From a virus (lineage: Duplodnaviria; Caudoviricetes): a stretch of DNA of 64,000 nucleotides. The notes beneath the pieces were generated by a model. That model made no database searches. It was not told the origin of the DNA and saw only the letters and a program-made list of their open reading frames with translations. The position numbers and the translations under genes are program-made. The stretch lies in the IMG/VR virus record IMGVR_UViG_3300011883_000002, positions 1 to 64,000 of that record; one strand, written 5' to 3'. Within the stretch, counting starts at the first letter, position 1. Each line of letters starts with the position of its first letter. Shown here one piece after another: positions 24,106-48,059 of this stretch.

Positions 24106-24506
24106 TAGATTCAAGTATCAGAACAGGCGATAAAAACGTAGATGATTACATAGCCTCCCTTGAAGGGGAGGTTTTGTCGTTTAGTGCTTCGAACAGCCGC
24201 AAGTTGATCCGTTCGATTGACAACATGGCTAAAAAGCTGTCTCATGACATGGATTTAATCGCTGCTGATCAGAAGAATGAAGATGATTCGGAGGTAGATC
24301 TTTCCGGTAAGCACGTGGACATCTATTTGAAGATGGTGGAGAAGGTGGATAAGATCACAAACTTCATCAAGGTTGTCGATTCCTTAGGGGAAGAGGATGC
24401 TCCTGACTTGTCTATCACCACTACTACCACGACTGAGACAGTAACGGAGAAGCTTGAAGATGTTAATTTCTTTGAGAAAATGAAGAGTAAAGTAGCTAAG
24501 AAATAA
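24099..24506 (+). CDS. probable terminase small subunit
   Basis: Helical 135-aa ORF coupled directly to TerL; position-based call. Confidence 0.5.
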   Translation: MLVDSSIRTGDKNVDDYIASLEGEVLSFSASNSRKLIRSIDNMAKKLSHDMDLIAADQKNEDDSEVDLSGKHVDIYLKMVEKVDKITNFIKVVDSLGEEDAPDLSITTTTTTETVTEKLEDVNFFEKMKSKVAKK

Positions 24507-26617
24507 TGGCAAGGGCAGGGGAAAGGCTTAAAATCGAGGTTCAAGGGATTGATTATATCACCCCACCAGTTCCTCCTTTACGGAGTATAAGGAACTACAA
24601 GACAGCAAAGGCTGATCAGGTTTGGGTGCGTGATGAGACGTATTTGCAGTGGTCATGGAATACTAAGCGGTTCGATGAGGAGAAGAATAGATTAAAGCTG
24701 TGGTGGGAAGACCCAGAGCCAGGTCAAATGGAATGGTATGAAGCGGAATTACATCGCATCCATAATGGCGACTGGATAATGATCAATGGAGAGCCGGTGT
24801 GGTTTAATAAATACTGCTACTTCTTCCATCAGTGGTTTATGCTTTTGGAACAAATCTATCCAATATTCAAAGACACGTCACTTGAGTACTTCAGATTTGT
24901 GGAGCTGTGTGAGAATGATCCGGGCGCGCTTGGAGATTGCGGTATCAAAGGTCGACGTGTGGGGCTTACATCCATGGCATCTTCTATTGATGTCTTGGTT
25001 GCAATTACAGAGAGTAATACCCTTCAAGGAATGGTGTCTAAAACAGGTACGGATGCTTATGAGATGTACTTGATGTGTAAAAACGGTATTGAGAATTTGC
25101 CTCAGTTCTTTATGCCGGAAATCAACAAAGTAACTGAGTCGGAAATCCATATTGCTAAACAGCAAAAGAAGATCAGTGCCAACAATAAAACTGTTACTGC
25201 TGACAAAGGCTTGAATAATCGTATCAACTGGCTTGACACTGCGGAAAACGCTTATGATGGTCGTAGGCTTCGTAGGGTTAAGGTGGATGAGGCAGCTAAA
25301 TTTGAAAAGGTGAATGTCCAGGTGTTGATTAATAAAATCAGTGACACCCTTGTGGTAGGTTCATCAATCGGTGGTTATATGTCTGTTTTCAGTACGGTTA
25401 ACAAAGGCGACAAGGGTGGTGATAACTTCCGTAAAATCTGGGATGGTTCTGACCATGTAAACGGTAAGAAGGATATGTTTGGCCGTACTCAAACGAAGTT
25501 GAAGCGTTTCTTTATAGCTGGTTTCAGGGGATTGTATGGTTACATTGACAAGTACGGTAATTCTGTTATTGACACACCTACACCGGAGCAATCGAAGTAT
25601 TTGGCGAGTGTAATAGATCCCTCTACCGGTAGACCTGCCTGTTTAAATCCTAACATTGGCGCAAGACAATTCTTGGAGGAGTCTCGCAAGATGCTTGCTC
25701 ACGATCCTGAGCTTTATGCGGAGCAGGTTCGTAAGTATCCATTTACTTGGGAAGAGGTGTTTAAAGGGGCGAATAATATGTGCCACTTCGACCTCGATGA
25801 GTTGAACAAGCAAATTGAATTAATTGAGGACGAACTAAGAGAAAAACAGATTAGTGAGAATGGCCGGAGAGTTACTTGGAAGGAGTCTCCTAACGGAGAT
25901 GCTTACTTCGTTGATGATCCCAAGGGTATTAGCTTCCTGCTGGAGATATTGCCTCCTGAGCAGGCTAATTTACGGCAGATGGTAGGCTCTACACTGGTTC
26001 CTATGCACACTGCTTACGGAGCTGCAGGCCTCGATCCATACGCCAACTCACAAAAGACTGCGGAACTGGGGTCCGATGCGTGTTTGATGATTCATTCAAG
26101 GTACAATCCGTTATTCCCAGATACTACAGGAATGCCGGTTGCCATGATCTTAGGCCGACTACCAACAAAGGACGACTTCTACAACCAGTGCAAACTTATG
26201 CTCCGGTATTACGGTATCGCTATGCTTGCGGAGCGTGCCCCGACGGACTGGGAGGATTACTTCATTCGTCACCACTTAGCCGATCCATTGGAAGTTAAAG
26301 AGGATAGAATGGGTTATTTACACACAACCTTGCGGACAGGCAAAACAGAAGTGTATGGCGTAGCACCACAGGATGCGAACCTTCGTGAAGCTCACCTGAC
26401 TTACATGAAGGAGTATGCTCGGAATAACATGCACAAGATTAAATTCCTTCGTCTTTTGAATGATATGCTGGCATTTAATCTAAAAGACAGGTTGTTGTAT
26501 GATGCCTGCCTTGCTTGGGGGTATGCGCTTATCGCTTTAAGCGTGACCGTAGACGAGCCAAAGGATCCGGAGAGAGAAGAACCCATGATCCAGACGTTCG
26601 ACTTATCAGCGGCCTAA
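24506..26617 (+). CDS. terL: terminase large subunit
   Basis: IKGRRVGLTS (Walker A region); VKVDEAAK (Walker B); GLDPY nuclease motif. Confidence 0.9.
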   Translation: MARAGERLKIEVQGIDYITPPVPPLRSIRNYKTAKADQVWVRDETYLQWSWNTKRFDEEKNRLKLWWEDPEPGQMEWYEAELHRIHNGDWIMINGEPVWFNKYCYFFHQWFMLLEQIYPIFKDTSLEYFRFVELCENDPGALGDCGIKGRRVGLTSMASSIDVLVAITESNTLQGMVSKTGTDAYEMYLMCKNGIENLPQFFMPEINKVTESEIHIAKQQKKISANNKTVTADKGLNNRINWLDTAENAYDGRRLRRVKVDEAAKFEKVNVQVLINKISDTLVVGSSIGGYMSVFSTVNKGDKGGDNFRKIWDGSDHVNGKKDMFGRTQTKLKRFFIAGFRGLYGYIDKYGNSVIDTPTPEQSKYLASVIDPSTGRPACLNPNIGARQFLEESRKMLAHDPELYAEQVRKYPFTWEEVFKGANNMCHFDLDELNKQIELIEDELREKQISENGRRVTWKESPNGDAYFVDDPKGISFLLEILPPEQANLRQMVGSTLVPMHTAYGAAGLDPYANSQKTAELGSDACLMIHSRYNPLFPDTTGMPVAMILGRLPTKDDFYNQCKLMLRYYGIAMLAERAPTDWEDYFIRHHLADPLEVKEDRMGYLHTTLRTGKTEVYGVAPQDANLREAHLTYMKEYARNNMHKIKFLRLLNDMLAFNLKDRLLYDACLAWGYALIALSVTVDEPKDPEREEPMIQTFDLSAA

Positions 26618-26663: not shown

Positions 26664-29048
26664 ATGTTCGACGAGAAAATTCAATACCATAGAGGGGTGC
26701 TTCCTTCGCCTCTTGCACCAAATTCTGTTAAGCTATCCAAAGAGTTTGGCGTAAACACAGCCAGGGCGATTTACAACTCCTTCGTGGAGGGAGATCAATC
26801 ATATTACCAGAAGCGTAATGCCACTTTCAAGTCGAACAGGGTTTTTGCCGCTGGTAAGCAGCCGATGGACTTATACTTGAAATTAATGAACATAGAGGAG
26901 AAATCTTCGTTTGTTAAACTTTCATACCACCCACGTCCTATTGCACCGAAGTTCAGGGATATTCTTGTGAACTCTATCATGCAGAAACTGGAGCGTGTGA
27001 AGTGCAAGGGGCTATCGCTGGAGATCAGTGAGCGAAAAGAGCAGAAGAAAAACGATGCGGCCTTCCGCATGAAGGAAAAGGATTATGTGTCGAAGTTGAA
27101 CCAGGAAGCAGGGATACCTTTTGAAGCTGAGGATGACTTTACACCTTCCAGCCAGGAGGAGCTTGATTTGTGGTCGCAGCTTAACGACGAGGAGTTTGAG
27201 GAGTTGTTGATGTCTGAGGGTATCAATTTTATCTTTTTAAACAACAACTGGAACGACATTCTTAAAAAGCAGATTGCAGAGAGTTTTGTGGATACCGGTA
27301 TGGCATTCGTAAAGAATAGCTTTGATCGGGGGAAGCGGATTGCCAACAAGGTTATCCGGCCAGAGCAGATGATCTACTCCAGTACAAGTTCCCTGACGTT
27401 TGATAAAGGGGCATACATTGGGCATTTGGAGCAGATGCAGGTTACGGACATTCGTATTTTATTCCCGGATATTTCAGAAGCGAAATTACACGCTATGTGT
27501 AAGCGGCACATGAATGACTTTGGAAATCCAGGTTATCTTGGAGATTGGAATAACACTTACGATTACGCACACCTAAGGCCTTATGACGGATTTGTTCTTG
27601 AGGTGATGTTCTACGAGTACAAGGCCACAAAATATATCACAGCGGTTGAAAGCTATGACCGGAACAATAAAAAGATCATTGAGTATGTAAAAGATACCTG
27701 GGGAGCTAACAGCGAGGTTGCTGCTGACAAGAAGGTTGTAAAGACGGCTATCCCTGCAATCTACGCAGGAGCTTGGATCGTGGGTTCTGACGATGTTTTG
27801 AAGTGGGGGGAACAAGATGATCAGCTACGGGATAACGAGAACGTAGAGGACCTTTCCTTCTCCTACGATGGGTATATGCTCAACAACGACGGTAGCATGA
27901 TCCCTACCTGCCCTATTATGGGTATGAAATCATCAATTATTCAGATGGACCTGGCGGTGCTTAAAATTCAACACCACATGGCGACTGTTGCTCCGGATGG
28001 GGATTTTATTGATGTTGATGCTGCGTCTGATATTGACTTGGGTGCAGGAGTCGGTAAGGTCGGCCCACTTGTATTGCTTAAAATCAAGCAGCAAACAGGT
28101 AACAGGTACTACTCCAGTCGGGGTATGAAGGGAGATCGTCGAAATCCACCGATTGAACAAGCATTAAACCAAATGGGGGATAAAATTTCCCAATTCATAA
28201 TGGTATATAATTTTGAGCTTGGGTGTCTGAAGGATTATATCGGGTTCAATGACGCTACTGATGGATCGGGTATTAATCCTCGTATGGGGGCCCAGGTAAT
28301 GAACAATCAGATACAGGCCTCAAATACTGCCACAGCTCACATCTACGGAGGTTATATCTATTTGTTTGGTAGAGTTGCCAGAGGGAATGGAATAAGGCTC
28401 TGGGATACGTTAAAAGAGGCTGATCCGAACGCTATGTACATGAGGATACTCGGACGTAAGAACGTTGACTTTATCCGTAAGCGCAAGGATTTGACTGCAA
28501 GCAACTACGATGTGAATGTTTCGATTGATATGTCTGACTCGGACAGACAATTCCTTGAGCAAAATATCAGTGTTTCTCTTCAGGCTGGTTTGATAAAGCT
28601 GGAGGATGCTGTGTTTGTTCGCAAGCTGACCAATCTTGACCTTGCAGCCAGGTATCTTACCTTCATTCAGAAGAAAAGGGAGAAAGAGGCTCACGAGCGT
28701 GAGATTGAGATGCAGAACAATGCACAGGAGAACCAGGGCCGGATCGTTGCTCAACAACAGCAGCAGCAGATGGAGATGAAAGCGGCTCAAGAGGAGGCTT
28801 CAATGAAGCAATTCCAAGAGAAATCAGCATTGGAACAATTTACTCAAGTTCAGAAGGGTATCTTTGATGCGTTGTTGAAGTCAATGGACCCTAACTCAAA
28901 AGCTATTCCGGCTTATATTCAGACATTGATTGATAAGCAGGTTCAGGATGATCTGGCCAGGGAAGAGCAGGAAGCACTCGCTGCAGAACAAGAGGCCGCT
29001 ATGCAGGCTGAACAAGAAGAAATGGAGGGACAGGCGGTGCCTGTTTAA
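26664..29048 (+). CDS. portal protein
   Basis: 794 aa after TerL; DGDFIDVDAASDIDLG motif; Q/E-rich helical C-terminus. Confidence 0.85.
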   Translation: MFDEKIQYHRGVLPSPLAPNSVKLSKEFGVNTARAIYNSFVEGDQSYYQKRNATFKSNRVFAAGKQPMDLYLKLMNIEEKSSFVKLSYHPRPIAPKFRDILVNSIMQKLERVKCKGLSLEISERKEQKKNDAAFRMKEKDYVSKLNQEAGIPFEAEDDFTPSSQEELDLWSQLNDEEFEELLMSEGINFIFLNNNWNDILKKQIAESFVDTGMAFVKNSFDRGKRIANKVIRPEQMIYSSTSSLTFDKGAYIGHLEQMQVTDIRILFPDISEAKLHAMCKRHMNDFGNPGYLGDWNNTYDYAHLRPYDGFVLEVMFYEYKATKYITAVESYDRNNKKIIEYVKDTWGANSEVAADKKVVKTAIPAIYAGAWIVGSDDVLKWGEQDDQLRDNENVEDLSFSYDGYMLNNDGSMIPTCPIMGMKSSIIQMDLAVLKIQHHMATVAPDGDFIDVDAASDIDLGAGVGKVGPLVLLKIKQQTGNRYYSSRGMKGDRRNPPIEQALNQMGDKISQFIMVYNFELGCLKDYIGFNDATDGSGINPRMGAQVMNNQIQASNTATAHIYGGYIYLFGRVARGNGIRLWDTLKEADPNAMYMRILGRKNVDFIRKRKDLTASNYDVNVSIDMSDSDRQFLEQNISVSLQAGLIKLEDAVFVRKLTNLDLAARYLTFIQKKREKEAHEREIEMQNNAQENQGRIVAQQQQQQMEMKAAQEEASMKQFQEKSALEQFTQVQKGIFDALLKSMDPNSKAIPAYIQTLIDKQVQDDLAREEQEALAAEQEAAMQAEQEEMEGQAVPV

Positions 29049-34737: not shown

Positions 34738-37700
34738 TGGCAAATATCATAACAGACGCAAAAGAGTTTGCAGGAGGTGGCTGGGATACAGAGACTGCGC
34801 TGGATAAAGTTGCTCCCCAGGATTTTGTTGGTGGTTTGAATATTCGGACTACCGGTTCGGATCGGCAGGAGCGTGGGAACGTAACTGATATTGAGTCAAC
34901 GGAACTGATTATCTCTCCTCGGGGCGAAGGTGTTTATACGACGGTATGCTCAAGATTCTTTAAAAAAGTTGATAGGTCTTATGCTTTGGTTCATCACGAT
35001 GGTGGCAAGCATTTGATTGTTGAGTTTAATAGGTTGACTCAGGAGGAGGTTGTTCTGTATGAGGATAAAAATGACAGCGGTGGAGTCCAGTTGATCCCCT
35101 TGAGCCTTGAAAAAAGGGTGTCCGATATAAAGCTTGTCCATGACAAGTTTTTGGTGTTTACAGACGGTTTGAGTTCGATTAAGTGTGTGAATATTGATAA
35201 ACTCAGGAATAAAACTGGCGTACTCACTGAGGAGTCTTTCAGTTTGATTAAAGCACCTCCACTTTCTGGGCCCTTCGTGTTTTACAATGATGATTCCAGT
35301 AGGGGTTCAAATCTGTTGCAGAAGAAACTATTCCAGTTCATCTCCCAGTACGAGTATAATGATTATATGCCAAGCGTTTGGAGTTCTACTTCGAATAGGC
35401 CGGTGCCGGATAGTGAGTTGGCTCCTGGTTCATCGACTGATGTAACGAAAAACAACAACCTTGTGGTTTTTGTGGATGCCGGTTCTGCTGATGTTCAGAA
35501 AGTAAATGTTGCTGCCAGGGATGGAATTTACGACTGGTATCTTGTGAGGTCTGTTGATCGGTCTTACATCACCTCTTTACCGAATTATGGTATTGATGTT
35601 TCGAATGGGGTTATGGAAGCTTATGATCCGGAAACGAATAAATACTCTTTTGCTTTTTATAACGATGGCGAGTATCAGTCATTGGATCAATTGGAGGTAG
35701 ATTCTTACTACGACAGGGTTCCTGAGACTGCAGAGACTTTAGAGATTGTAAATGGTAATATCTTGGCTTTGGGTGGCCTTAGAGAAGGGAAAGTCCGTCC
35801 GGATACGAAGGTTAAGTTTGAGGTTACTTACTACAAGCCTAATGTGAATACGGTGCCTGTTGATCAGTCCAATGCATTGAAGGTCGCTGATTCTCGTATT
35901 AACGAATATGTGAATGGGATTCGGGTTAAACAGGAGATTACGCTGACTGGTCAACCAAAGATCGGTGATGTGATTACTGTTATGACCTATAACAACAAAA
36001 ATCCTCAGGAGCGGTCGGAGTACACTTATACTGCAGTTTTGGCTGATCAGAATAATCTTTACGGATTTATAGACAATTTGGTTTCTAAACTGGGGCTTCA
36101 GGGGGAGCGTGTGGGGAACAAGCTTTTCATAATCCTCAGAGAGTACCATGCTATGCAATCTTTCATCATCACCTTGGCTAATACTGTTTCCGGACCTTCA
36201 AAATCGATCAGATCAATGAAGACCAATAGCAGCTATCAGTTTGCGTTAAGGTATCGCGATAAGTATGGCCGGTTCTTCCCTTTGATTACCGGTAGGGACT
36301 TCGTGATCAATACTCGAAGCCTGGCTCAAAGCAATGGGTTGCTGCCGGAGGTCACTTGGACTCTTCAGAGTGAGAATGCTCCTGAGGGTGCTGCAGATTA
36401 TCAAATTATGATTTCAGAGAATAGTACTCACCAAGAGATCATTTACGCTAATGGAAAGCTGTCTCAGACCGCTGCGGATTATTACGAGCTGGATATTACT
36501 CCTTTGTATGACTTCAATCGACGGAACCCGAGTTCTGTACTGACTTATGAGTACGTGGAAGGGGATAGGGTTACTTTTGTCCAGTACTCAATGAATGTTC
36601 TTCCTAATCAGTATTTGTTCTTCAATGACGAGTTGGTAGATCTGCAGGTGTTGGGTTTTGAAATTAAAGTGACAGAGGTTGAGGGCCAGCCTAAAAAGAC
36701 TCAGTACATCCTTAGGGTTTCTAAAACCAGTCGCTTGGATAGCAAGCTATTCGATTTGTCGAATATATTGGTAGAGATATACCGGCCAAAGAAACGAGCG
36801 GATAAGACATCTCCAACTGATAATTTGTGGTTTGAGTTTGGCGAACGGTACACTATTGCTGATGGTAAGCATGAAACTATGACCGGTCTTATTCGTGAGG
36901 CAGATACTTTTTACAAGACAAGAAGCTATGCTTTGGCCACTGATCTGAATGTTCTCCAGCAGTATCTCGTTGAGGACTTCAATTTTAGTGATCATTATCC
37001 TTCGAGGTTTACTTCTTATGGTAGGGGTGGGTATTATGATGACGAGCCCGGATTAGTAGACAGGGGGGCTTATTTCCGTTATTCTGATCCATCCATACCA
37101 GGTGCGAAATATATGGGCTTAAATCGCTTCTATGCTGAGCGTCTGTATGGCGAAGGCCCTGGGGAAACTTCATCCAGTTATGGAACGATTATGAAGATGC
37201 GTATGAGGGATAGCTTCCTTGTTGTCGTGCAGCAGACTCGTGTATGCCATGTGCCGGTTAACCTGTCAATCCTTTCTGATCAGGCCGGAAATCAGAATGT
37301 TTCGGTTTCAGACAGACTCTTCAATAAGGCTGTGTATATCGCCAGCGGAAATCGTGGAATAGGATCCTTGAAGGAGTCTTATGCGGAGAGCGAGAACGGA
37401 ACGATTTACTTTGTGGATGCTTCAACCTATCTGCCGGTCCGTGATGGTTATGATGGGGTAAAGGTTTTGTCTGTTAAGATTGAAAGAGCTTTGCAGGACT
37501 TCATTAAAAGCGTTGTCCTTTCGGGAGGTAAAATCATTGGTGCTTTCGATGACACGCATCATGAGTTCTTGCTTACTGCTTTGTTTCCGGACGGTGTTGC
37601 TGATGTTACTTGGGTTTGGGGTGAGGATGATAACCGATGGGGGGCCCCAAGGTCTATCACTCCGGAAAGTGGGTTCTCTGCAGGGGATAATTTTTACTCT

Positions 37701-38876: not shown

Positions 38877-40265
38877 ATGGCTATAGATAGAACCGAAGCT
38901 GCCCTGTACGGCAAAGGCCAAGGAGGGGCATTCGTATGGGGAGAGAACACGGCCCTTAAAGGCTTAAAAGAATTTCAGAAGCAGGATCAGCTTCGTCGAA
39001 TGAAGGAGGACGCTGAGATTCAGGAGTCCATGTCTAAGATTTCAACTGATGGGGCTCGTACTCAGGATTTACCTGAAATCCTAACTCGATATCAAGGAGT
39101 TAAACAGACCTTCGCTAAGCTAAAAGGCACTACCAATCCTCAGGAAAGGATAAAACTACAAACGGAGTATAATGAGAAGAAAATGGAAGTTAGTAGAGCT
39201 GTAGAAGCTTCCAAGACTTATGCTGCTACTTTGGTTGAGGCTGGAAAATTGAGATTAACGAGGCCCGACGATCTCTCTGACACCTATGCGAAAGATTTTG
39301 CTGAGGTATCAGGATTGAGTGTTTTTGACCCAAAGACACCTGAGCGTGTCAATGCTTTTATGGCTACAGCTGTTGCTCCTAAATTTGATCACATGGGTTA
39401 CTCTAAGAAAATATTAGATAGGTCAGTAGAACAGATACAAGGCAAGGAAACTACGGTAAGAAGCGGATCGCTTACTCGGTTGCAACGAGAAGAAGGGGAG
39501 GCTTTAAACTTAGACAATGTTTTAAATAATTCAATCAATGCGTACACTAATGATCGTGATTTTAAGCGGTATGTTGATAGGACTTACAAAGGCCAAGAGC
39601 CTGAGGATGCGCTTAAAACTTACGCTTCGGAGTTGTACACAGCGAACAAGGATGCTTACAATAAAGTGAAGGTTAAAGATGTCGCAAGCCAGTGGGATCA
39701 GAGAGCACCTATCACTTCAGAGTATCAGCGTTGGCAGATGAGCAGGCCTCGTGAGGGTGAAAAACTTACTCAAGGAGAGCAACAAATTTCTGATCGTCAG
39801 CAGTGGATTGAAGATATGTGGAATAAAGTGCCAGGATCTGGAGAAAGATTGAAAAATATTGTTGCAGGTGTCGGGGGATATGATGGGGATGTTAAAATCA
39901 GGGTTAACGGAGATAAGATCAGAATTGGTGTCCCGGATAAGAGAGAGACAAGTGTTGATCAAGATGGGACGGTGAAAGTCAAAGTTGTTCCGGGTAGAGA
40001 GGTTGAGTTCAGTAGGAACGATCCTAATCAAAAACATAAGTTAAATGCTTTGCTGAATGACTTAACTGATGAGAAAGTAACTCCGAGTAAGTTTAACAGT
40101 TCGCCCAAGGGAAGATCTACCGCTTCTGCACCATCCGGAAAGTCTTCGGCAAAAGAAGTACCTTTATCGAAAGTAAAATCTTTGGTTGGTAAGCCTGGAT
40201 ATGAGGGCTACACAGAGAAGGAATTGGTTGATTATTACAAAAAACAAGGTTATAAAATCAAATAA
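38877..40265 (+). CDS. internal virion (ejection) protein
   Basis: Helical 462 aa; position. Confidence 0.6.
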   Translation: MAIDRTEAALYGKGQGGAFVWGENTALKGLKEFQKQDQLRRMKEDAEIQESMSKISTDGARTQDLPEILTRYQGVKQTFAKLKGTTNPQERIKLQTEYNEKKMEVSRAVEASKTYAATLVEAGKLRLTRPDDLSDTYAKDFAEVSGLSVFDPKTPERVNAFMATAVAPKFDHMGYSKKILDRSVEQIQGKETTVRSGSLTRLQREEGEALNLDNVLNNSINAYTNDRDFKRYVDRTYKGQEPEDALKTYASELYTANKDAYNKVKVKDVASQWDQRAPITSEYQRWQMSRPREGEKLTQGEQQISDRQQWIEDMWNKVPGSGERLKNIVAGVGGYDGDVKIRVNGDKIRIGVPDKRETSVDQDGTVKVKVVPGREVEFSRNDPNQKHKLNALLNDLTDEKVTPSKFNSSPKGRSTASAPSGKSSAKEVPLSKVKSLVGKPGYEGYTEKELVDYYKKQGYKIK

Positions 40266-40267
40266 CA

Positions 40268-43200
40268 ATGGAAGACGAATTATTACCACCACCACCGAGG
40301 AAAAAACAAGTTTCAGGAGATGATGGCTTACCGCTGCCACCTCCAAAAAAAAAAGGCGGTATCCGCTACTGCTGGCATAAATTCCAAAACTGGCTCAAGC
40401 TTAGAGTTTAATACGCCATTTGAAGATCCTACGCCATTAAAAGTCGTGCCTGCTTCGATCCCTATGCCTCCCAAGGAAAAGCCTCGAGTGAAACTGTCTT
40501 TTGGACTTACCACTGATACTAAGTCCCCTGATTTGAAGAACAATGGGGGGTTTGCTCAAGATATAGAGGCACACATTCTTGGAGACCGATCAACAAGTAT
40601 ATCACGGACTCTTTACGGTGCAGCCAAAGCTTACGATCAAGCCCAAGGGAAAGGTGCTTACTCAAACATTCAGCAGAAATCAATTAATAAAAAGCAAGAC
40701 GAACTCCGGGATTCTACAGAACCTCAGGCTTATGATGGTGCGGGTATGAATGTCGCAAAGGGGTTGAATATTGCTTATGAGGGGTTGCTAAAAACACCTC
40801 GCTTCCTTTATGGCTTAACCGCAGCTCCTCAGAATTTCTTGGCAGATCAACTTGATATTCCTGCCCTCGCGACCACTTACGACGACTTCCTTTCTAAGAC
40901 GAATACCACACTTGGATTTTCTCCATTGACCCAAATAGATCAGTTGGCTGATTATTATGCAGGCAATGCTGGGGAATTTGATAAGCGGACCAGGAAGTAC
41001 GATGATAATATCGTGATGAGTATTGGGAAAGGTAACTGGTCAGCAGCTGGGAGCCAAATTATTGATCAGATTGCGGAGTCCGCTCCGTCCATTGCTGTAA
41101 TGGCTATGACTTCCGGTGCCGGAAATGCAGCAAAGCTTGGTGAGGTAAGCAAAACTTTAGCTAGTGCGCTGCCTTTTATGTCTCAGAAGAATGCAGAACT
41201 TCAAAGGGACACTACTGTTCCTGAATGGAAGAAACCACTTGTGTCTGTTTTTAATGGTTTATCTGAGGTTATGATAGATCAGAAGTATGGCACTCAGGCC
41301 GCGATACAGGGCGTAGTTGACAAGTTTATGGCTGATGGTGCTGAGGTGGCTTTGGATGCCGGAGCCAAAATGGTTAAGGGGTATCTGCAGAAAGCTTTAT
41401 CTGGTGCGAAGGTTATCCAGCCTTTTATTGAAGGTGCTGCTGAAGAAGCTGCTACTCAGTTCGCGCAGAATATGCTTGACAAATATGCTTTGGGGAAAGA
41501 CATTGATCTTATGGACGGTGTTGCTGATGCCGCTATTGTTGGTGGTGTTATGACTGGGGGAATTACTACTGCCGGAAATATCATCATGCCAAAGAATAAA
41601 AAATCAGTTACTGATCTGCATGCCCAGCAAGAGGCTTTGCTTAATGAATTGGATAATCCGGACTTGGCCCCTGAAAGTAAAGAAGCTATTGCTGAGATGC
41701 TTGAGCAAAATCATGCTGAAATCGAGACTGTAACTTCTCAGGACCTAAAGGATTATAATTCCTTGTCAGATACTCAAAAATCCCAGCTTGAAACAATGGT
41801 TAGTGGCCGATCTGTGGCTGAGACTATTGTTAATGATCCTACGGCTTCTCAGGCTGTAAAGGATGCGGCTCAGAAGAAAATTGACGCTATCGACAAAGGG
41901 ATTGATGCGATCAAACCTGAGGAAAAGGAGACAAAGAAAGCAGTTCCTGTTCCGGCTGCAGTAGCTGAAGTGGAGGCTGTATCTGTGGAGCCGCCTATGA
42001 ATGATGCTCCTATTTCTGAATCTTTGCAAGGAGGCGTGTTCTATATGAACGGTGATCGCGGTGTGGTCGCCCTGGATGGCCAAACTGTAGTGTTCGAAAC
42101 CAATGATAAGATAGTGGAGCTTGGGAATATCGAGGAGCTTTCTGAAAGCCGCTTGAGTGAATTTGGTATTGAGATGGAGCAGCAGCTGGATCTTAATATC
42201 AGTGACGACATGGCCACTGTTTCTATTGATGGGGAGACTTATACCAATCCAAATGAAAACTTTACTGATGCCCTGAATTATGATACCAAGGGTGGGGTGA
42301 TCAGTGTTACGCTGCTTAATGAAAAAGGTCAGCGGAGAACTCTTCGCGGTGAAAAAGGTCAACAAATAGCTCACGAGTACATACTTAAACAATTTGAAAA
42401 TGAAGCAAACGACACAGACATTGCCAGCGCAATCAAACAGGCAGACACAATTATCAGAACTGAAATTGAAACTGAGCCAGTTGACACCGAAACAGCGGAT
42501 CAAGGTATTGAGTTCGAACCAGAAGCAGCAGGAGAAACAGTAAGGCCTGAGGTGCCTAAGGTTAAGCCACGCATTCCGGTAGAAGCTAAGCCAGGTAAAT
42601 TGAGCACCCGGATAAAGGACATCGTTAAGAATGCTCCGTCAAGCGCACAAGAGTCTATTTCGCATTTCTTCCTCAAGGGCGGTAAGGTGAGTACTGATGA
42701 TTTTATAGCTGGGACCGGCTTCGGCTTTCTCAAGGTGGATCGTAATGGCCGCAAGGTAAAGCTTAACCCTGCTGAGACAGCTCAATACCTGGCTAATGGT
42801 AAGTTGGTCACAGGAGAGCGAGTTATCATGTCTGAGGAGCTTAGAATGGCTAAACTGAGAGGACTTGTTGCCGACAAGAGTAAGGGTGGGCTGGCCGCTG
42901 ATGATATTGCTAAAAACAGAATAGATCGGTTCGGCCAGGATGAGCTTTCTATGGTTCAGGAGTTGGTTAATTCTGCTGCCATGAGTAGAGAGGATTTGGT
43001 GTCTCAAGCTGAAAAGAATGCTGAAGCTGCTGAGTTGTTTGGTTATAGTCCGGCAGAGCTTGCCGCCATGGAAGCTGAACAATACAATGAGTTCATAGAG
43101 TTTATGAATGCCTTGTCGGATGAGGAGATTGAGGGGTTGTCGGAGGGGATAAGGAATGAGGTTCTTCAGAAGGCTAATGAACGCTTAAATCGCAAGCCTC

Positions 43201-46200
43201 CTGAGCAGTTATTCACACCTGTAGAGATTAGAATGGCAAACGAATTAATTGATAAGCATACGGATAAAGATGGTAACTTAGATTTCGATGCTTTAGAGGC
43301 TGATTATTACCAAAACATACATGGCCGTGGAGGGTTTGAGTTTGTTGGTGCCGAGCCTGTGTTTAAACAAATTTTAGAAAACGGATATGAAAACTTTAAC
43401 GAAAGAACAAAAAACAAAAAACCTGCTTCAAGTGCTAACAGCGAAAGCAATAGCCAAAATGACTCCGGGGCAGTTGAAGAAGCTAAACCAAAGCCAGCAG
43501 AAGTAAAGCCTGTTTCTGAGGGAAAAAAGTCAAGCGGAGGGTTTGACACTTGGACAGATAGTGATCTTGAAAATGAATGGAATGATTTAGAAACAGATAG
43601 AAGTCCTGAAGGTAAGAAGCGATTCAAGCAGGTTGAGGATGAGCTAATCAGGCGGGAAAGAAGCAGCATATTTGATGTAGATGTTGATGATATACCTTCT
43701 GTGCTCCGTGCGATGGATAAAAAAAGGAAATCAGGAACTGACACTTTTATGGAGGTTAGTGAGGGGCGTAGGGTATTGGGTGTTTCTGAAAGATATTCCT
43801 CAACTGAAAGATCAAAAAGGACCAATTCCGAGTTAATCAAGGACTTTATTAAAGGGCTCAGGGGATCTCCTGAAAGTGATTATGCTGATGGACTATTATT
43901 CAGAGAGGCGGCAAAAGAATTTATTAGCCGCGGAGGAACCACAAGTGAGTTAATCCAAGAAGCGAAAGGTGTTTATAAAGATTTCAGTGATGCAGAAGCA
44001 GCTCAAACAGTTGCAGGAATGCTTAAAAGGATTTTTGGAGACACAAAGGCTTCTCCAGTAGAAACTAATTCTTCTAGGATATTAGACAATAATAAAGCTC
44101 CTGTCTCTGAGGCAATGGCTGAACCTTCTAAAAAGGAAGGGTTGCTCCGTTCTGTACAGGAGAAGCTTAAATTAAGTGAAGAGGAAGTTGCCAGGAAGAA
44201 AGCATTGGCAAGCAAATTCAGAACCTTCAATGATGCTTCTCGTATGGCGACTTTGGTCTTTGATCCGGAGTTCCGTGAATATGCTGGGTTGGTGTTTAAA
44301 GATGCGCTTGGAGATTTTGCTGGGTTCTCTGCTGAGATTGTTGATAACGTAGGTGAAGGCATTAGGGGTTATCTTCCTCAGTTGTACCAAGAGTTAGGCG
44401 GCAAAGATAATGTAGGTGCATCTCCTGTTACTGAGGCTGTAGAGCCCGTAAAAGCAAGCACTTCTTTTACTGTACTAGCCCACAAGAACGTTAGCAGTGA
44501 GGAGATTTCTGACACACTGAACAATATTGAGCGAGAAACTGGAAGAGAGCTAACAGACGAAGAAAAGCAGTATAAGGTAACTAAGAGAATGGATGCCGCA
44601 CGACATGGTGCTGATGTGGTACAGAAGGCTCGTGAGGAGTTTGGTGACGACGATTACGCTATGAAACTTCTGGATTACATTAAAACTAATCCTACTGTTT
44701 CGGTCGAGAATAGGTCGCTAATCATAATTAGTCTAGAGAATGAACTTGAACGGAGAATAACAGAGGAGCCTCACAATGCTGAGCCATTAAATAAGCAGTT
44801 GAAGTTGGTTCGGGACTTCTCTACCGTCCAACAGAGAAGTGCGGCTATTGCTAACGGATATGGTATCCTTAGGCAGCTTATTAGGGTTGGATTTCAGTTG
44901 AATGAGGCGGCAGACAAGATGTTCTCAGCTAAACAAAAGGAATCCCGGTCCAAGGTCACTAAGGCTGTTCAGTCCGATGCTGATGCTATTAATGCTGCGG
45001 CAGATGCGGTGGAGGTGAGTACCGATGAAGTTATTGAAGCTCGTATTGAGGAGGCCGTTCGTAAGGGTGTAGAAGCAGAGATTGATGCTGTTTATAAAAA
45101 GATGCCTTCGAAAATGAGGGCTCGTGCTGATAAAGCTATTGCGGCTATTGAGCAGTTTCAAAAGAAATTACGCAGTATGGCGTATGACGCTTCAATAGGT
45201 TTGCCAGTTGCTATTCTTGATTCAGGGCTTACAACCATAAAATACGCTATTAAGGCAGGTGTTAAGATTGCGGATGCTATTGAGTTAGGGATTGACAAAA
45301 TCAATAGCCAGTACGGTAAGAAGTGGGATAAGGAGGATCAATTCCGTCAGGATATGCTTCAGGGCTTCAAGGACAATAATATCGACGTAGATCAAGGTAA
45401 GAATAGTTCGAGGGGGAGAAAGGTTCTTACAGAGGCTGAAAGGCTTGAGAAAGCTAAAGAGAATGTCCGCGGACGTATTGCTGAAATCCAGTCCGAGATC
45501 GCGAATAAGAAACGTGAGTTGAAGGCAAGGAACATTCTTAATCCAGATGCCGAGCTTGAAGGGTTATTGGCACAGGAGGAGCAGCTTAAAAAGCTTCGTG
45601 ATAAAATCCTTCCACCGGCACCAGATCCTAATGCTACTCAGAAAAAAATTGATGCCCAGGTTACTCGTTTGACAAATGAGGTAGCTGATTTGGAGGAGCA
45701 GATACGGAGAGGAGAAAAGGATGCTTATGCTGCAAACCAAAATCCTCTTACAAGCCCTGAAATCGAAAGGCTGAAGGCTGAGAAAAAAGCAAGACTCGCA
45801 ATGCTCGAGGCTTTAGATCCGGATCCTGGCACAATGGTTCGTGAGGCGTTGATTGATGCTGGTAACGGCAGAGAAGCTACGGTTACGGTTGTCCGTAAGG
45901 ATGCTAATGGAAATGATGTTCGTGTGAAGGAGAAAAGGACTGTCCTTGACTGGAAGAAGCTCGCAGGGGCAGAAGGTTCGGTTGATAAAATTCAGGCTAA
46001 GGTGGAGGCTTACATGGCTTCAAGAGGGTATTCCGCAGGTGAGATCGTTAGAATGCAGGCTAAGTTTGTCGCTGAGTATAATGCTTTACGTGCTTCCATC
46101 ATTGAGAAGTCGCTGAATGAGCTTGAGAGAAGAAACACTGAGAAGGAGCCTGTAGAAGTTAAGTCGAGTGCACGTAGATTAGCAGAGCTTTATAACATGG

Positions 46201-48059
46201 GCTTGTTTGATCAGCAAAGTGATACCTACGATTATTTAATGGGTAATGCGCTTGGTTTAAGTGGTATTGGTATGGAGGCCTTCTTCCAGGCTAAGGTGTT
46301 GGCTAAGGCATTGTCTGATCTTTATTTGAGTAAAGGTCCGGACGGAATGGCTTATAACGAGTCGAACTTGAAGAAAGCAGTAATCGACATTAATAAGAAG
46401 ATCGAGCGGCTTTTGGATAAGGTAGCAAAGGATGAGGCCACTACAACCTACAAGATAATGGTTATGGTTAAGGAGTACATGGGTATGGCTCAGAGGTCTA
46501 TGCTTGTTTCGATCCCTCAAGCGGTTGAGAACACGATGTCTGGTTATATTGCCCGGCTATACCAAAGGGTAGGGTATGCTTTTGATAAGTCTGATACGGC
46601 TGAATTAAGGAAGCACAGGAAGGAGCTTGCTCAGGCGGTAGCGGCAGATATAAACTTTAATGCCGGTTTAGAGTATGGGGAAATCAATAGCCCATTTCTA
46701 TCGAAGAGTAGGCTTATGGAAAGTATCAACACGGCCTCGGATAGCAAGTTATACCACTTCACTGCTTCGGCTGTGCTTGGGAGGGTATTCCTGGAAGCTG
46801 CGGATAGCATGCACAAAGTGGCATTGACTGAAAAGTTCTTTGTCTACAACCTGATTAAGGTTTTGAGAAAGAAGGGTATGTCTCGTGAGGCTGCTTTGCA
46901 TTATGTTTCTGAAAATCTTACTGGCCAGTCTTTCGAGGATGCTAAGGCTTCAGCTAAACAGATCATTGAGAAAGTGAATACTGATGCTAAGACGGAGGTT
47001 ATCCCAAATAACAAGGAGTCTATCTTCCGTCTTGCAAATGACATTGTAAAGGAGGCTTTGGTTCGGGGGGGTAAGCTGAACTTAGCTGAGGTAGATGCTT
47101 CTTTTGGTGCGGCTTATACAGGGGCTGGTTTTGAGCTTGGACATGAAGCAAATAATCCTTTATCAATGGCTGTTTCAACGGTGAGTTCAAACATTCAAAA
47201 CAAACTCAACCTAGCTATTAAGAATAAAGATTGGGCTCGTGCTACTGGCTACACGGCATTATCTATTACTTGGACTAACATTTTAAACCCTTTTGTGGGT
47301 GGTGGTACGAACTGGGCTTTTATTGCGATGGAAAAGGCTGGCGTTCCTACACTAATGACTTTTTACTACAATTTTATCGCAAGGAGTCCAGGGCAGAAAA
47401 TAGATTTAAGTACTGATGCTGGGATGAAGAATTTAGAAACCGCTTTACGGTATCAGATGATTGCTAAGAATGCGAATAATAGAGTGTTCTTGGGCGCCGC
47501 CCTGTCTGTGGCTACTTTCGTTGCGCTTAGTGCTTCTGGAGGCGATGATGATTTGGATAAGTGGACCAAAAAAAACGAATGGACAAAGCGGTACTTGAAG
47601 AAGATTGCACCTCCGGTAGTTCAGTATATGCTTGCTAATAAAAATAACAAGACTGGAGAGTTTATCGCAGGGCTTGGGAACATAAAAGCGCCAGCATTTG
47701 ACGAGAATAAGAAGGTTTGGGACGCTTTAATGGGTATTGACTCCCCCTCTGATGTTAAGTCTGCTAAGACCACTGGTGCTTTCGGAGATTTGCTTGGTAG
47801 CAGGCTTTCTACGCCAGTTATTCCTTACAGGATAGCTCGTGATGCTGAGAATATTTATCGTGGCTTACAGGGCGTAGAATTACGTAATTCAGAGTTTAAG
47901 ACTTCAGGGTTCTTTAATGGATTTTTTAAAGGTGGGCTTGTAGATTATTTAGGGTTACGTGATAAGTATTTTAAATCTGCCCCAAAGAAGTTGACATCTG
48001 AGGATATAAGGAAGATCATTGAAAAGGCTAAAGCAAAAGCTAAAAAGGATCGAGAATAG
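40268..48059 (+). CDS. giant internal virion / polyvalent ejection protein; 5' end out of frame at A10 (40345-40354)
   Basis: ATG 40268 gives MEDELLPPPPRKK...LPLPPPKKK; the long ORF is in the +1 frame; removing one A joins them. Confidence 0.8.

Follow-up and report, generated by a model that had tools for sequence, protein, structure and literature searches.

The stretch of viral DNA analysed here, called the window, comprises 64,000 nucleotides (nt) (positions 1 to 64,000 of the 73.7-kb IMG/VR viral record IMGVR_UViG_3300011883_000002; Duplodnaviria, Caudoviricetes) and carries a run of ten adenines (A10, positions 40345-40354) exactly where a 47-amino-acid (aa) open reading frame (ORF) and the frame of a giant virion-module protein diverge. 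We find that this run is a conserved branch point for two products, because the frame that encodes the end of the short product is conserved both in relatives where the two frames are offset and in relatives where they are joined. Programmed recoding of some kind at this site is highly probable. Programmed transcriptional slippage is the reading that we favour, with a probability of roughly 60%.

All elements of the site lie on the plus strand. The short ORF (40268-40411, stop TAA at 40409-40411) starts with an ATG separated by two nt (CA) from the stop TAA of the preceding gene (40263-40265), a distance that probably makes the two translationally coupled. Its product consists of an N-terminal module of two LPPPP-basic repeats, three lysines (KKK) encoded by the run and an 18-aa aromatic and basic tail. 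The giant ORF as listed (40320-48059, 2,579 aa) is in the frame one base to the right; its body, read in this +1 frame, extends from 40353 to 48059, with 2,568 codons after the run. Positions 40355-40411 are dual-coding: read in the zero frame they specify the conserved tail, read in the +1 frame the Ser/Thr/Gly linker of the giant protein. Replacing A10 by A9 joins the frames as ...PPP-KKK-AVSATAG. These positions and the junction had been described in an earlier, sequence-only reading of the window, and all are confirmed in the sequence. The start chosen by the gene caller, 40320, results only from reading the second repeat out of frame. We also rejected a -1 frameshift for the window, as that frame closes after 8 codons. 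Neither the window nor the rest of the 73.7-kb record contains an A/T homopolymer of at least 9 bases other than this A10. Its presence alone is not very improbable, with roughly 0.5 such runs of A or T expected in 64 kb at 42% G+C (a rough estimate); what goes beyond chance is its position at the frame junction, which is kept by relatives.

Nine loci, found by locus searches, were read as DNA; for P0003-P0018 (Logan- and NCBI-derived homologues), the register was deduced from the called N-termini alone. Homologues with a complete called N-terminus carry two copies of a short motif, KKK and a Ser/Thr/Gly linker, all in one frame. The short ORF of the window is built alike, with two LPPPP-basic repeats followed by KKK, but here the linker continues in the +1 frame. 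Module and giant protein share one frame in P0007-9, P0012, P0014, P0015, P0018, L003, L004, L010, L030 and L042. While the first basic patch is variable (RKK, RRK, RKKK), the second is constantly KKK, which suggests a nucleotide rather than a protein constraint. The repeats themselves were surveyed in the window (40268-40344) and in the N-termini of P0007-P0018, L003, L004, L009-L011, L019 and L040-L042; their motifs are lineage specific (LLPPPP-basic, DEFGIPI, IDLSAFD, DPFxEFGG, KYPEYK, KPxFNPxxxY, KPVGQLKPIGG). On a quick tree, closely related bodies have swapped module types, much as if these were interchangeable docking cassettes. Moreover, the KYPEYK module in the short ORF of L007 is homologous to the in-frame N-terminus of the L019 giant protein (51% identity, E 1e-14). 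In L030 (IMGVR_UViG_3300013307_000034, 2617-2900), two DPFAEFGG repeats are in frame with the giant protein and the junction contains no homopolymer.

An identical +1 offset at the junction of module and linker was observed in five independent assemblies: the window, L002 (a 74.9-kb record), L006 (a 25-kb metagenome contig), L007 and L035. The sequence-only reading had suggested looking in relatives for an out-of-frame run behind a mini-ORF, and one is present in these four other contigs, with motifs T3A7 (L002, L006) or G9 (L007, L035) in place of A10. All five loci need the loss of 1 nt (or the gain of 2) to join the frames. In L002 and L006, an LLPPPP-type short ORF of 54 codons runs into T3A7 and the giant ORF lies one base to the right; in L007 and L035, two KYPEYK repeats run into G9 and the giant ORF is again one base to the right. 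The giant proteins of L002 and L006 share 56% identity, yet their T3A7 motifs are identical; each is 46-57% identical to that of the window. Because a TAA stands inside the slip motif, L002 and L006 have no upstream start in the giant frame: the next ATG of that frame comes tens of codons further on in L002 and falls within the conserved domain in L006, whose database protein (P0019) begins only inside this domain, at an invariant SPL motif. The giant frames stay open for 391 to 2,568 codons after the run, the lower value being that of L007, where its contig ends; the records of L002 and L035 are rated 100% complete. Given this conserved offset and the long open giant frames, assembly error, recent inactivation and phase variation at the DNA level are very unlikely. 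A miscounted A9, which the sequence-only reading had named as the observation that would overturn it, is effectively excluded by the same offset in independent assemblies.

The same out-of-frame state is suggested for five more contigs by their called N-termini: that of P0016 resembles the out-of-frame reading of the window, and those of P0003, P0004, P0010 and P0011 begin with MGLGGGS as in L007. Four relatives, L003, L004, L010 and L042, carry the A10 in frame. In G000, G003 and G004 no A/T run outside the site reaches 9 bases; likewise, the motif is the sole G9 of G001 and the sole A10 of the AT-rich G002. On the quick tree of the conserved domain, in-frame and out-of-frame registers are interleaved, as expected if either register is viable. 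Two further pattern matches, L033 and L034, were dropped as unrelated sequences. In L035 (IMGVR_UViG_3300022932_000017, minus strand, from about 5186 down to 3200), the KYPEYK repeats, hairpin, G9 and tail form a cassette as in L007; a second run, G8, occurs elsewhere in this record (G001, 36504-36511, minus strand). The giant ORF of L035 (>1,677 codons) has no BLASTP similarity to the N-domain of the window, so the KYPEYK cassette appears portable between different giant bodies. Giant proteins of the L007 and L035 types have no BLASTP similarity to each other's family within the first 600 aa.

We then considered the RNA on the 5' side of the motif. The 45 nt preceding it are predicted, in each of the five out-of-frame loci, to fold as a hairpin that ends on the base before the motif. 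In the window, this predicted nascent-RNA hairpin spans 40316-40344, with an outer stem GGAG...CUCC and its last base adjoining the run. The 45-nt folds reach -9.2 kcal/mol in the window and -12.2, -9.8, -12.4 and -12.4 kcal/mol in the other four loci (z scores of -1.2 to -2.8). Isolated hairpins range from -8.8 to -12.4 kcal/mol, that of the window having -8.8, or -8.4 in the register shared with L002 and L006. Between the end of the hairpin and that of the motif lie 10, 10, 10, 9 and 9 nt, about the length of one RNA:DNA hybrid. The window, L002 and L006 share one common register in which 100% of cells are paired; in L006 a C-G pair is replaced by U-A through compensatory changes at two synonymous sites, and one pair of the window is G-U. 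L007 and L035 have identical stems, and all three of their loop bases differ. Along the 2.7-kb three-way alignment, the hairpin is the most conserved 29-nt window (25/29 positions invariant vs a 28% background, top 0.07%). No hairpin precedes the A10 of the in-frame loci L003 and L010. An Rfam search around the site gave no match.

The frame of the short product is conserved behind the motif as well. The short ORFs are homologous in L002 and L006 (54 aa each), L007 (77 aa) and L035. In every locus the short-ORF frame stays open for at least 16 codons after the motif and encodes an aromatic, basic tail, with a motif of approximately [YW][HK][KR][FI]xxW[LF]; indeed, positions 40367-40395 form the third most conserved window of the three-way alignment. 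Tail-frame similarity was compared with a null in which the giant-frame protein was kept and synonymous codons were redrawn from the usage of each locus, only pairs between subclades being scored. It reached 294 vs 96 +/- 34 for six loci and 538 vs 180 +/- 52 for eight loci, with a null maximum of 337 in 2000 trials. The conservation thus spans four subclades, at a z of about 6-7 against synonymous recoding. In the six-locus test the null never attained the observed minimum open length, and Trp codons numbered 11 vs 2.8 expected. The signal includes L003, L004 and L010 with their in-frame A10, where access to the tail would require a 1-nt insertion or a -1 shift. Judged by this codon-level comparison, both frames are under selection. 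Amphipathicity of the tail is no more than suggestive (P 0.03-0.65 per locus), and a membrane helix is not claimed. A protein search with the 47-aa product gave no match, which is uninformative because overlapped mini-ORFs are probably not called.

In the mechanism that we favour, the 47-aa and giant proteins would share one start codon (ATG 40268) and one common two-repeat module. Faithful A10 messenger RNA (mRNA) would give the 47-aa protein with its aromatic, basic tail. In a fraction of transcripts, RNA polymerase would slip forward on the run to make an A9 mRNA, aided by the nascent-RNA hairpin, which would form immediately behind the 10-nt run at the moment when nothing but the run makes up the RNA:DNA hybrid. 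Ordinary translation of the A9 mRNA would then fuse the module to the 2,568-codon body (...PPP-KKK-AVSATAG...), and a 2-nt insertion (A12) would produce the same fusion plus one extra lysine. In this way the run would set the ratio of the small protein to the giant, probably injected, multi-domain virion protein. The sequence-only reading had proposed programmed slippage or a +1/-2 frameshift that yields a short Pro/Lys peptide and a limited amount of the giant protein; the offset in five loci, the flush hairpin and the conserved overlapping tail all support it. The transcriptional level of the slip, its efficiency and the roles of the two proteins are what we infer here; the anatomy of the site, its conservation and the selection on both frames can be read from the sequences themselves.

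The closest precedents come from insertion sequences. Penno et al. (PNAS, 2015) is reportedly the source study for slippage in Roseiflexus IS630. In that element, a stem-loop that abuts T5C5 on its 5' side favours realignment in the forward direction and a specific 1-nt deletion, with features like those of intrinsic terminators (PMC5009743). Slippage motifs have been classed as XmYn and A(T)n, and IS1447 has an A9U motif with an adjacent stem-loop (PMC6211511). As in these two elements, the sites described here have a motif of 9-10 nt, homopolymeric or in two blocks XmYn (compare T3A7), directly after a predicted nascent-RNA stem-loop, and a 1-nt mRNA deletion would fuse two ORFs, the short product being the default. 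They differ in that the gene is that of a phage giant virion protein and not a transposase, and that they are known from sequence alone; they also include three interchangeable motifs, one of them G9, a conserved tail on the short product and relatives in the opposite register.

A second group of precedents comprises Thermus thermophilus dnaX (A9), Shigella mxiE (T9) and Citrobacter rodentium tssM1 (A11), where a run of at least 9 bases within a coding region also leads to a mixture of mRNAs and thereby to two functional products. The in-frame A10 relatives (L003, L004, L010, L042) resemble this hairpin-independent type. In contrast to these genes, in which A's are added, the window needs a deletion or a 2-nt addition, and its branch point lies 26 codons from the start, so that a mini-protein would result and not a truncated enzyme. 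Spontaneous slippage on A/T runs gives mainly insertions, and deletions are rare (PMC5574713). The deletion-requiring loci with their flush hairpin and 9-10 nt motif, and the insertion-requiring loci with a plain A10, thus fit the picture given in the literature. For TssM1, both length variants are needed and their ratio matters (PMC4256274).

Among phage structural modules, recoding with a common N-terminus is conserved in the tail assembly chaperones G and GT, reportedly made by programmed -1 ribosomal frameshifting (Xu, Hendrix and Duda, 2004), where the ratio is fixed and the longer protein is the rarer one. The present site shares this conservation and common N-terminus. It differs from the G/GT case, a -1 ribosomal shift on a heptamer near the 3' end of a small gene, in that the 5' end of a 7.7-kb gene would undergo a +1 shift, or its mRNA the loss of 1 nt, behind an upstream hairpin.

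Several observations weigh against transcriptional slippage or blur the case for it. The window's own hairpin is the weakest of the five (z of -1.2 vs shuffles), covariation on three sequences is not significant (148/500 shuffles) and the hairpin arms also encode conserved residues (GDDG, PPP). The association of hairpin and deletion is not clean, because the in-frame loci L004 and L042 have weak hairpins too, 3 and 1 nt before their A10 (z around 0). L030 lacks the run, yet the reading frame shifted by one base to the left remains open there over some 40 codons and contains the Trp-rich tail motif of L004. We are not aware of any report that a bacterial RNA polymerase undergoes programmed slippage on G runs. 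The choice between transcription and translation is decided by geometry and precedent only.

The main rival is a programmed +1 ribosomal frameshift, which we consider unlikely. Here the mRNA would be faithful and the P-site transfer RNA (tRNA) for Lys, or that for Gly on G9, would re-pair one base forward; in the in-frame relatives, a -1 shift on A_AAA_AAA would lead to the short product. All three motifs allow such +1 re-pairing (AAA_A, GGG_G), and A_AAA_AAA, relevant to the in-frame relatives, is the classic -1 slippery heptamer, known from dnaX. Furthermore, the fused peptide would be the same as that from a 1-nt-deleted mRNA, so conservation does not discriminate between the two, and sliding of ribosomes on poly(A) has been described (PMC4363877). 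However, the zero-frame codon after the run (GGC, TAT or TTC) is neither a stop nor conserved, and a single mechanism would need Lys and Gly tRNAs alike. No element resembling a Shine-Dalgarno sequence lies at the spacing of prfB: CCUCC stands just upstream of the motif, and the GGAG 25 nt upstream pairs with it in the hairpin. The out-of-frame loci show no significant downstream structure. Finally, a hairpin at 0 nt spacing would be melted within the shifting ribosome, whereas RNA polymerase mechanisms use that spacing (PMC5009743). Moderately significant hairpins were observed 24-26 nt downstream of the in-frame A10 in L003 (2754-2810, z of -2.1) and L004 (2855-2895, z of -1.8), too distant for a classic -1 frameshift stimulator.

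It is less probable still that no recoding takes place and that two overlapping genes are present, with the 47-aa ORF independent, the giant protein started from its own ATG at 40320 or 40323 and the in-frame relatives derived by gene fusion. An ATG of the giant frame does lie upstream of the run in the window, L007 and L035 (start MGLGGGS), and in L007 and L035 the short-ORF cassette precedes giant proteins that are mutually dissimilar over the first 600 aa, moving as one unit like a small gene. Against this, the giant frame is closed by a TAA inside the slip site of L002 and L006, which makes initiation at 40320 or 40323, the second observation named by the sequence-only reading as decisive against it, unlikely. 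The upstream ATG arises automatically from the Asp-Gly codons of the module (GAT GGN). Independent genes would also leave unexplained why a 9-10 nt run that is unique in the genome, with its hairpin, stands exactly where the frames diverge, and why the tail frame is conserved in the in-frame relatives.

An artefact (a true A9 that was miscounted) or a heritable on/off switch for the gene, as the sequence-only reading had also envisaged (a phase-variable tract caught OFF), is very improbable. Homopolymers are classic hot spots of error and contingency, and the interleaved registers on the quick tree imply several register changes in evolution. Yet the same one of two possible OFF registers was seen in five of five independent assemblies, and no interruption of the giant ORFs appears across thousands of codons. 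T3A7 (two loci) is not error-prone; it is unchanged between genes whose proteins share 56% identity, just as one G9 is common to L007 and L035. The out-of-frame genomes are also the assembled majority in complete records.

If programmed slippage is indeed the mechanism, terminator-like, hairpin-dependent transcriptional slippage would extend from a few insertion sequences to phage structural genes, and it would be new both beyond such elements and for a G run. The same branch point, present in both registers and with different motifs, would be a natural experiment on deletion vs insertion slippage. A so far unrecognised mini-protein would share a docking motif with the largest protein of the phage, probably an injected one that carries effectors. 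By analogy with TssM1, sharing this module could let the mini-protein act on the giant cargo as a competitor, a chaperone or a means of dosing it. This would represent a new phage way to dose an ejected effector against a small partner with a common docking signal, and a handle on the dosing or capsid loading of such cargo. More generally, we would tentatively propose, at slightly less than even odds, that a portable cassette heads giant injected proteins in a group of environmental podophages, its parts being a docking module with two repeats, a hairpin, a motif of 9-10 nt and a tail frame in overlap, and that every register yields both mini-protein and giant by polymerase slippage, the ratio being set by hairpin-driven deletion or by spontaneous insertion. 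In databases the real N-terminal module is hidden, as gene callers mis-start the giant genes (MMAYRCH..., MGLGGGS..., or far downstream).

The site is part of a virion module. Upstream of it are the large terminase gene (24506-26617, TerL matching PHROG 6681) and the portal gene (26664-29048, matching PHROG 6547); an upstream protein of 1136 aa resembles the crAss muzzle C-terminal domain PF25729, at 26.4 bits just below the cutoff of 27. No match for a major capsid protein was obtained in this module. The gene directly before the short ORF (38877-40265, plus strand, 462 aa) had no match in Pfam and PHROG searches. Similarly, Pfam, PHROG and PDB sequence searches with the giant protein (P0002, 2,579 aa) gave no match and no recognisable domain. 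Neither blastn and tblastn against phage records, nor the single-protein locus search in viral contigs, nor the search of GTDB genome contigs, nor the locus search with P0008 gave a match, and a cluster look-up returned no names.

The giant protein has 24 homologues with 31-62% identity over the first 500 residues. After the run come the linker and a conserved domain of about 400 aa, followed by a long variable region and, at the C-terminus, a hydrophobic part. The variable regions of homologues contain DnaJ (PF00226), ADP-ribosyltransferase (PF03496), ART-PolyVal (PF18760), GNAT (PF00583) and SNF2 (PF00176) domains. From the position of the gene and the domain content of its relatives, the giant protein is probably of polyvalent type, packaged and injected, and the label of ejection protein, used in the sequence-only reading, is plausible. 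The polyvalent proteins of phages and conjugative elements, reportedly described by Iyer, Burroughs, Anand, de Souza and Aravind in 2017, are likewise giant multi-domain proteins of the virion module with swappable effector domains, a likeness found in the homologues of P0002, which itself has no Pfam match. To our knowledge, neither a recoding site nor a mini-protein sharing their N-terminus has been reported for this class. In the C-terminal 350 aa (about 47000-47900 in the window), several long hydrophobic stretches were seen by eye in the translation; they resemble membrane-inserting segments and would fit a role in ejection or channel formation.

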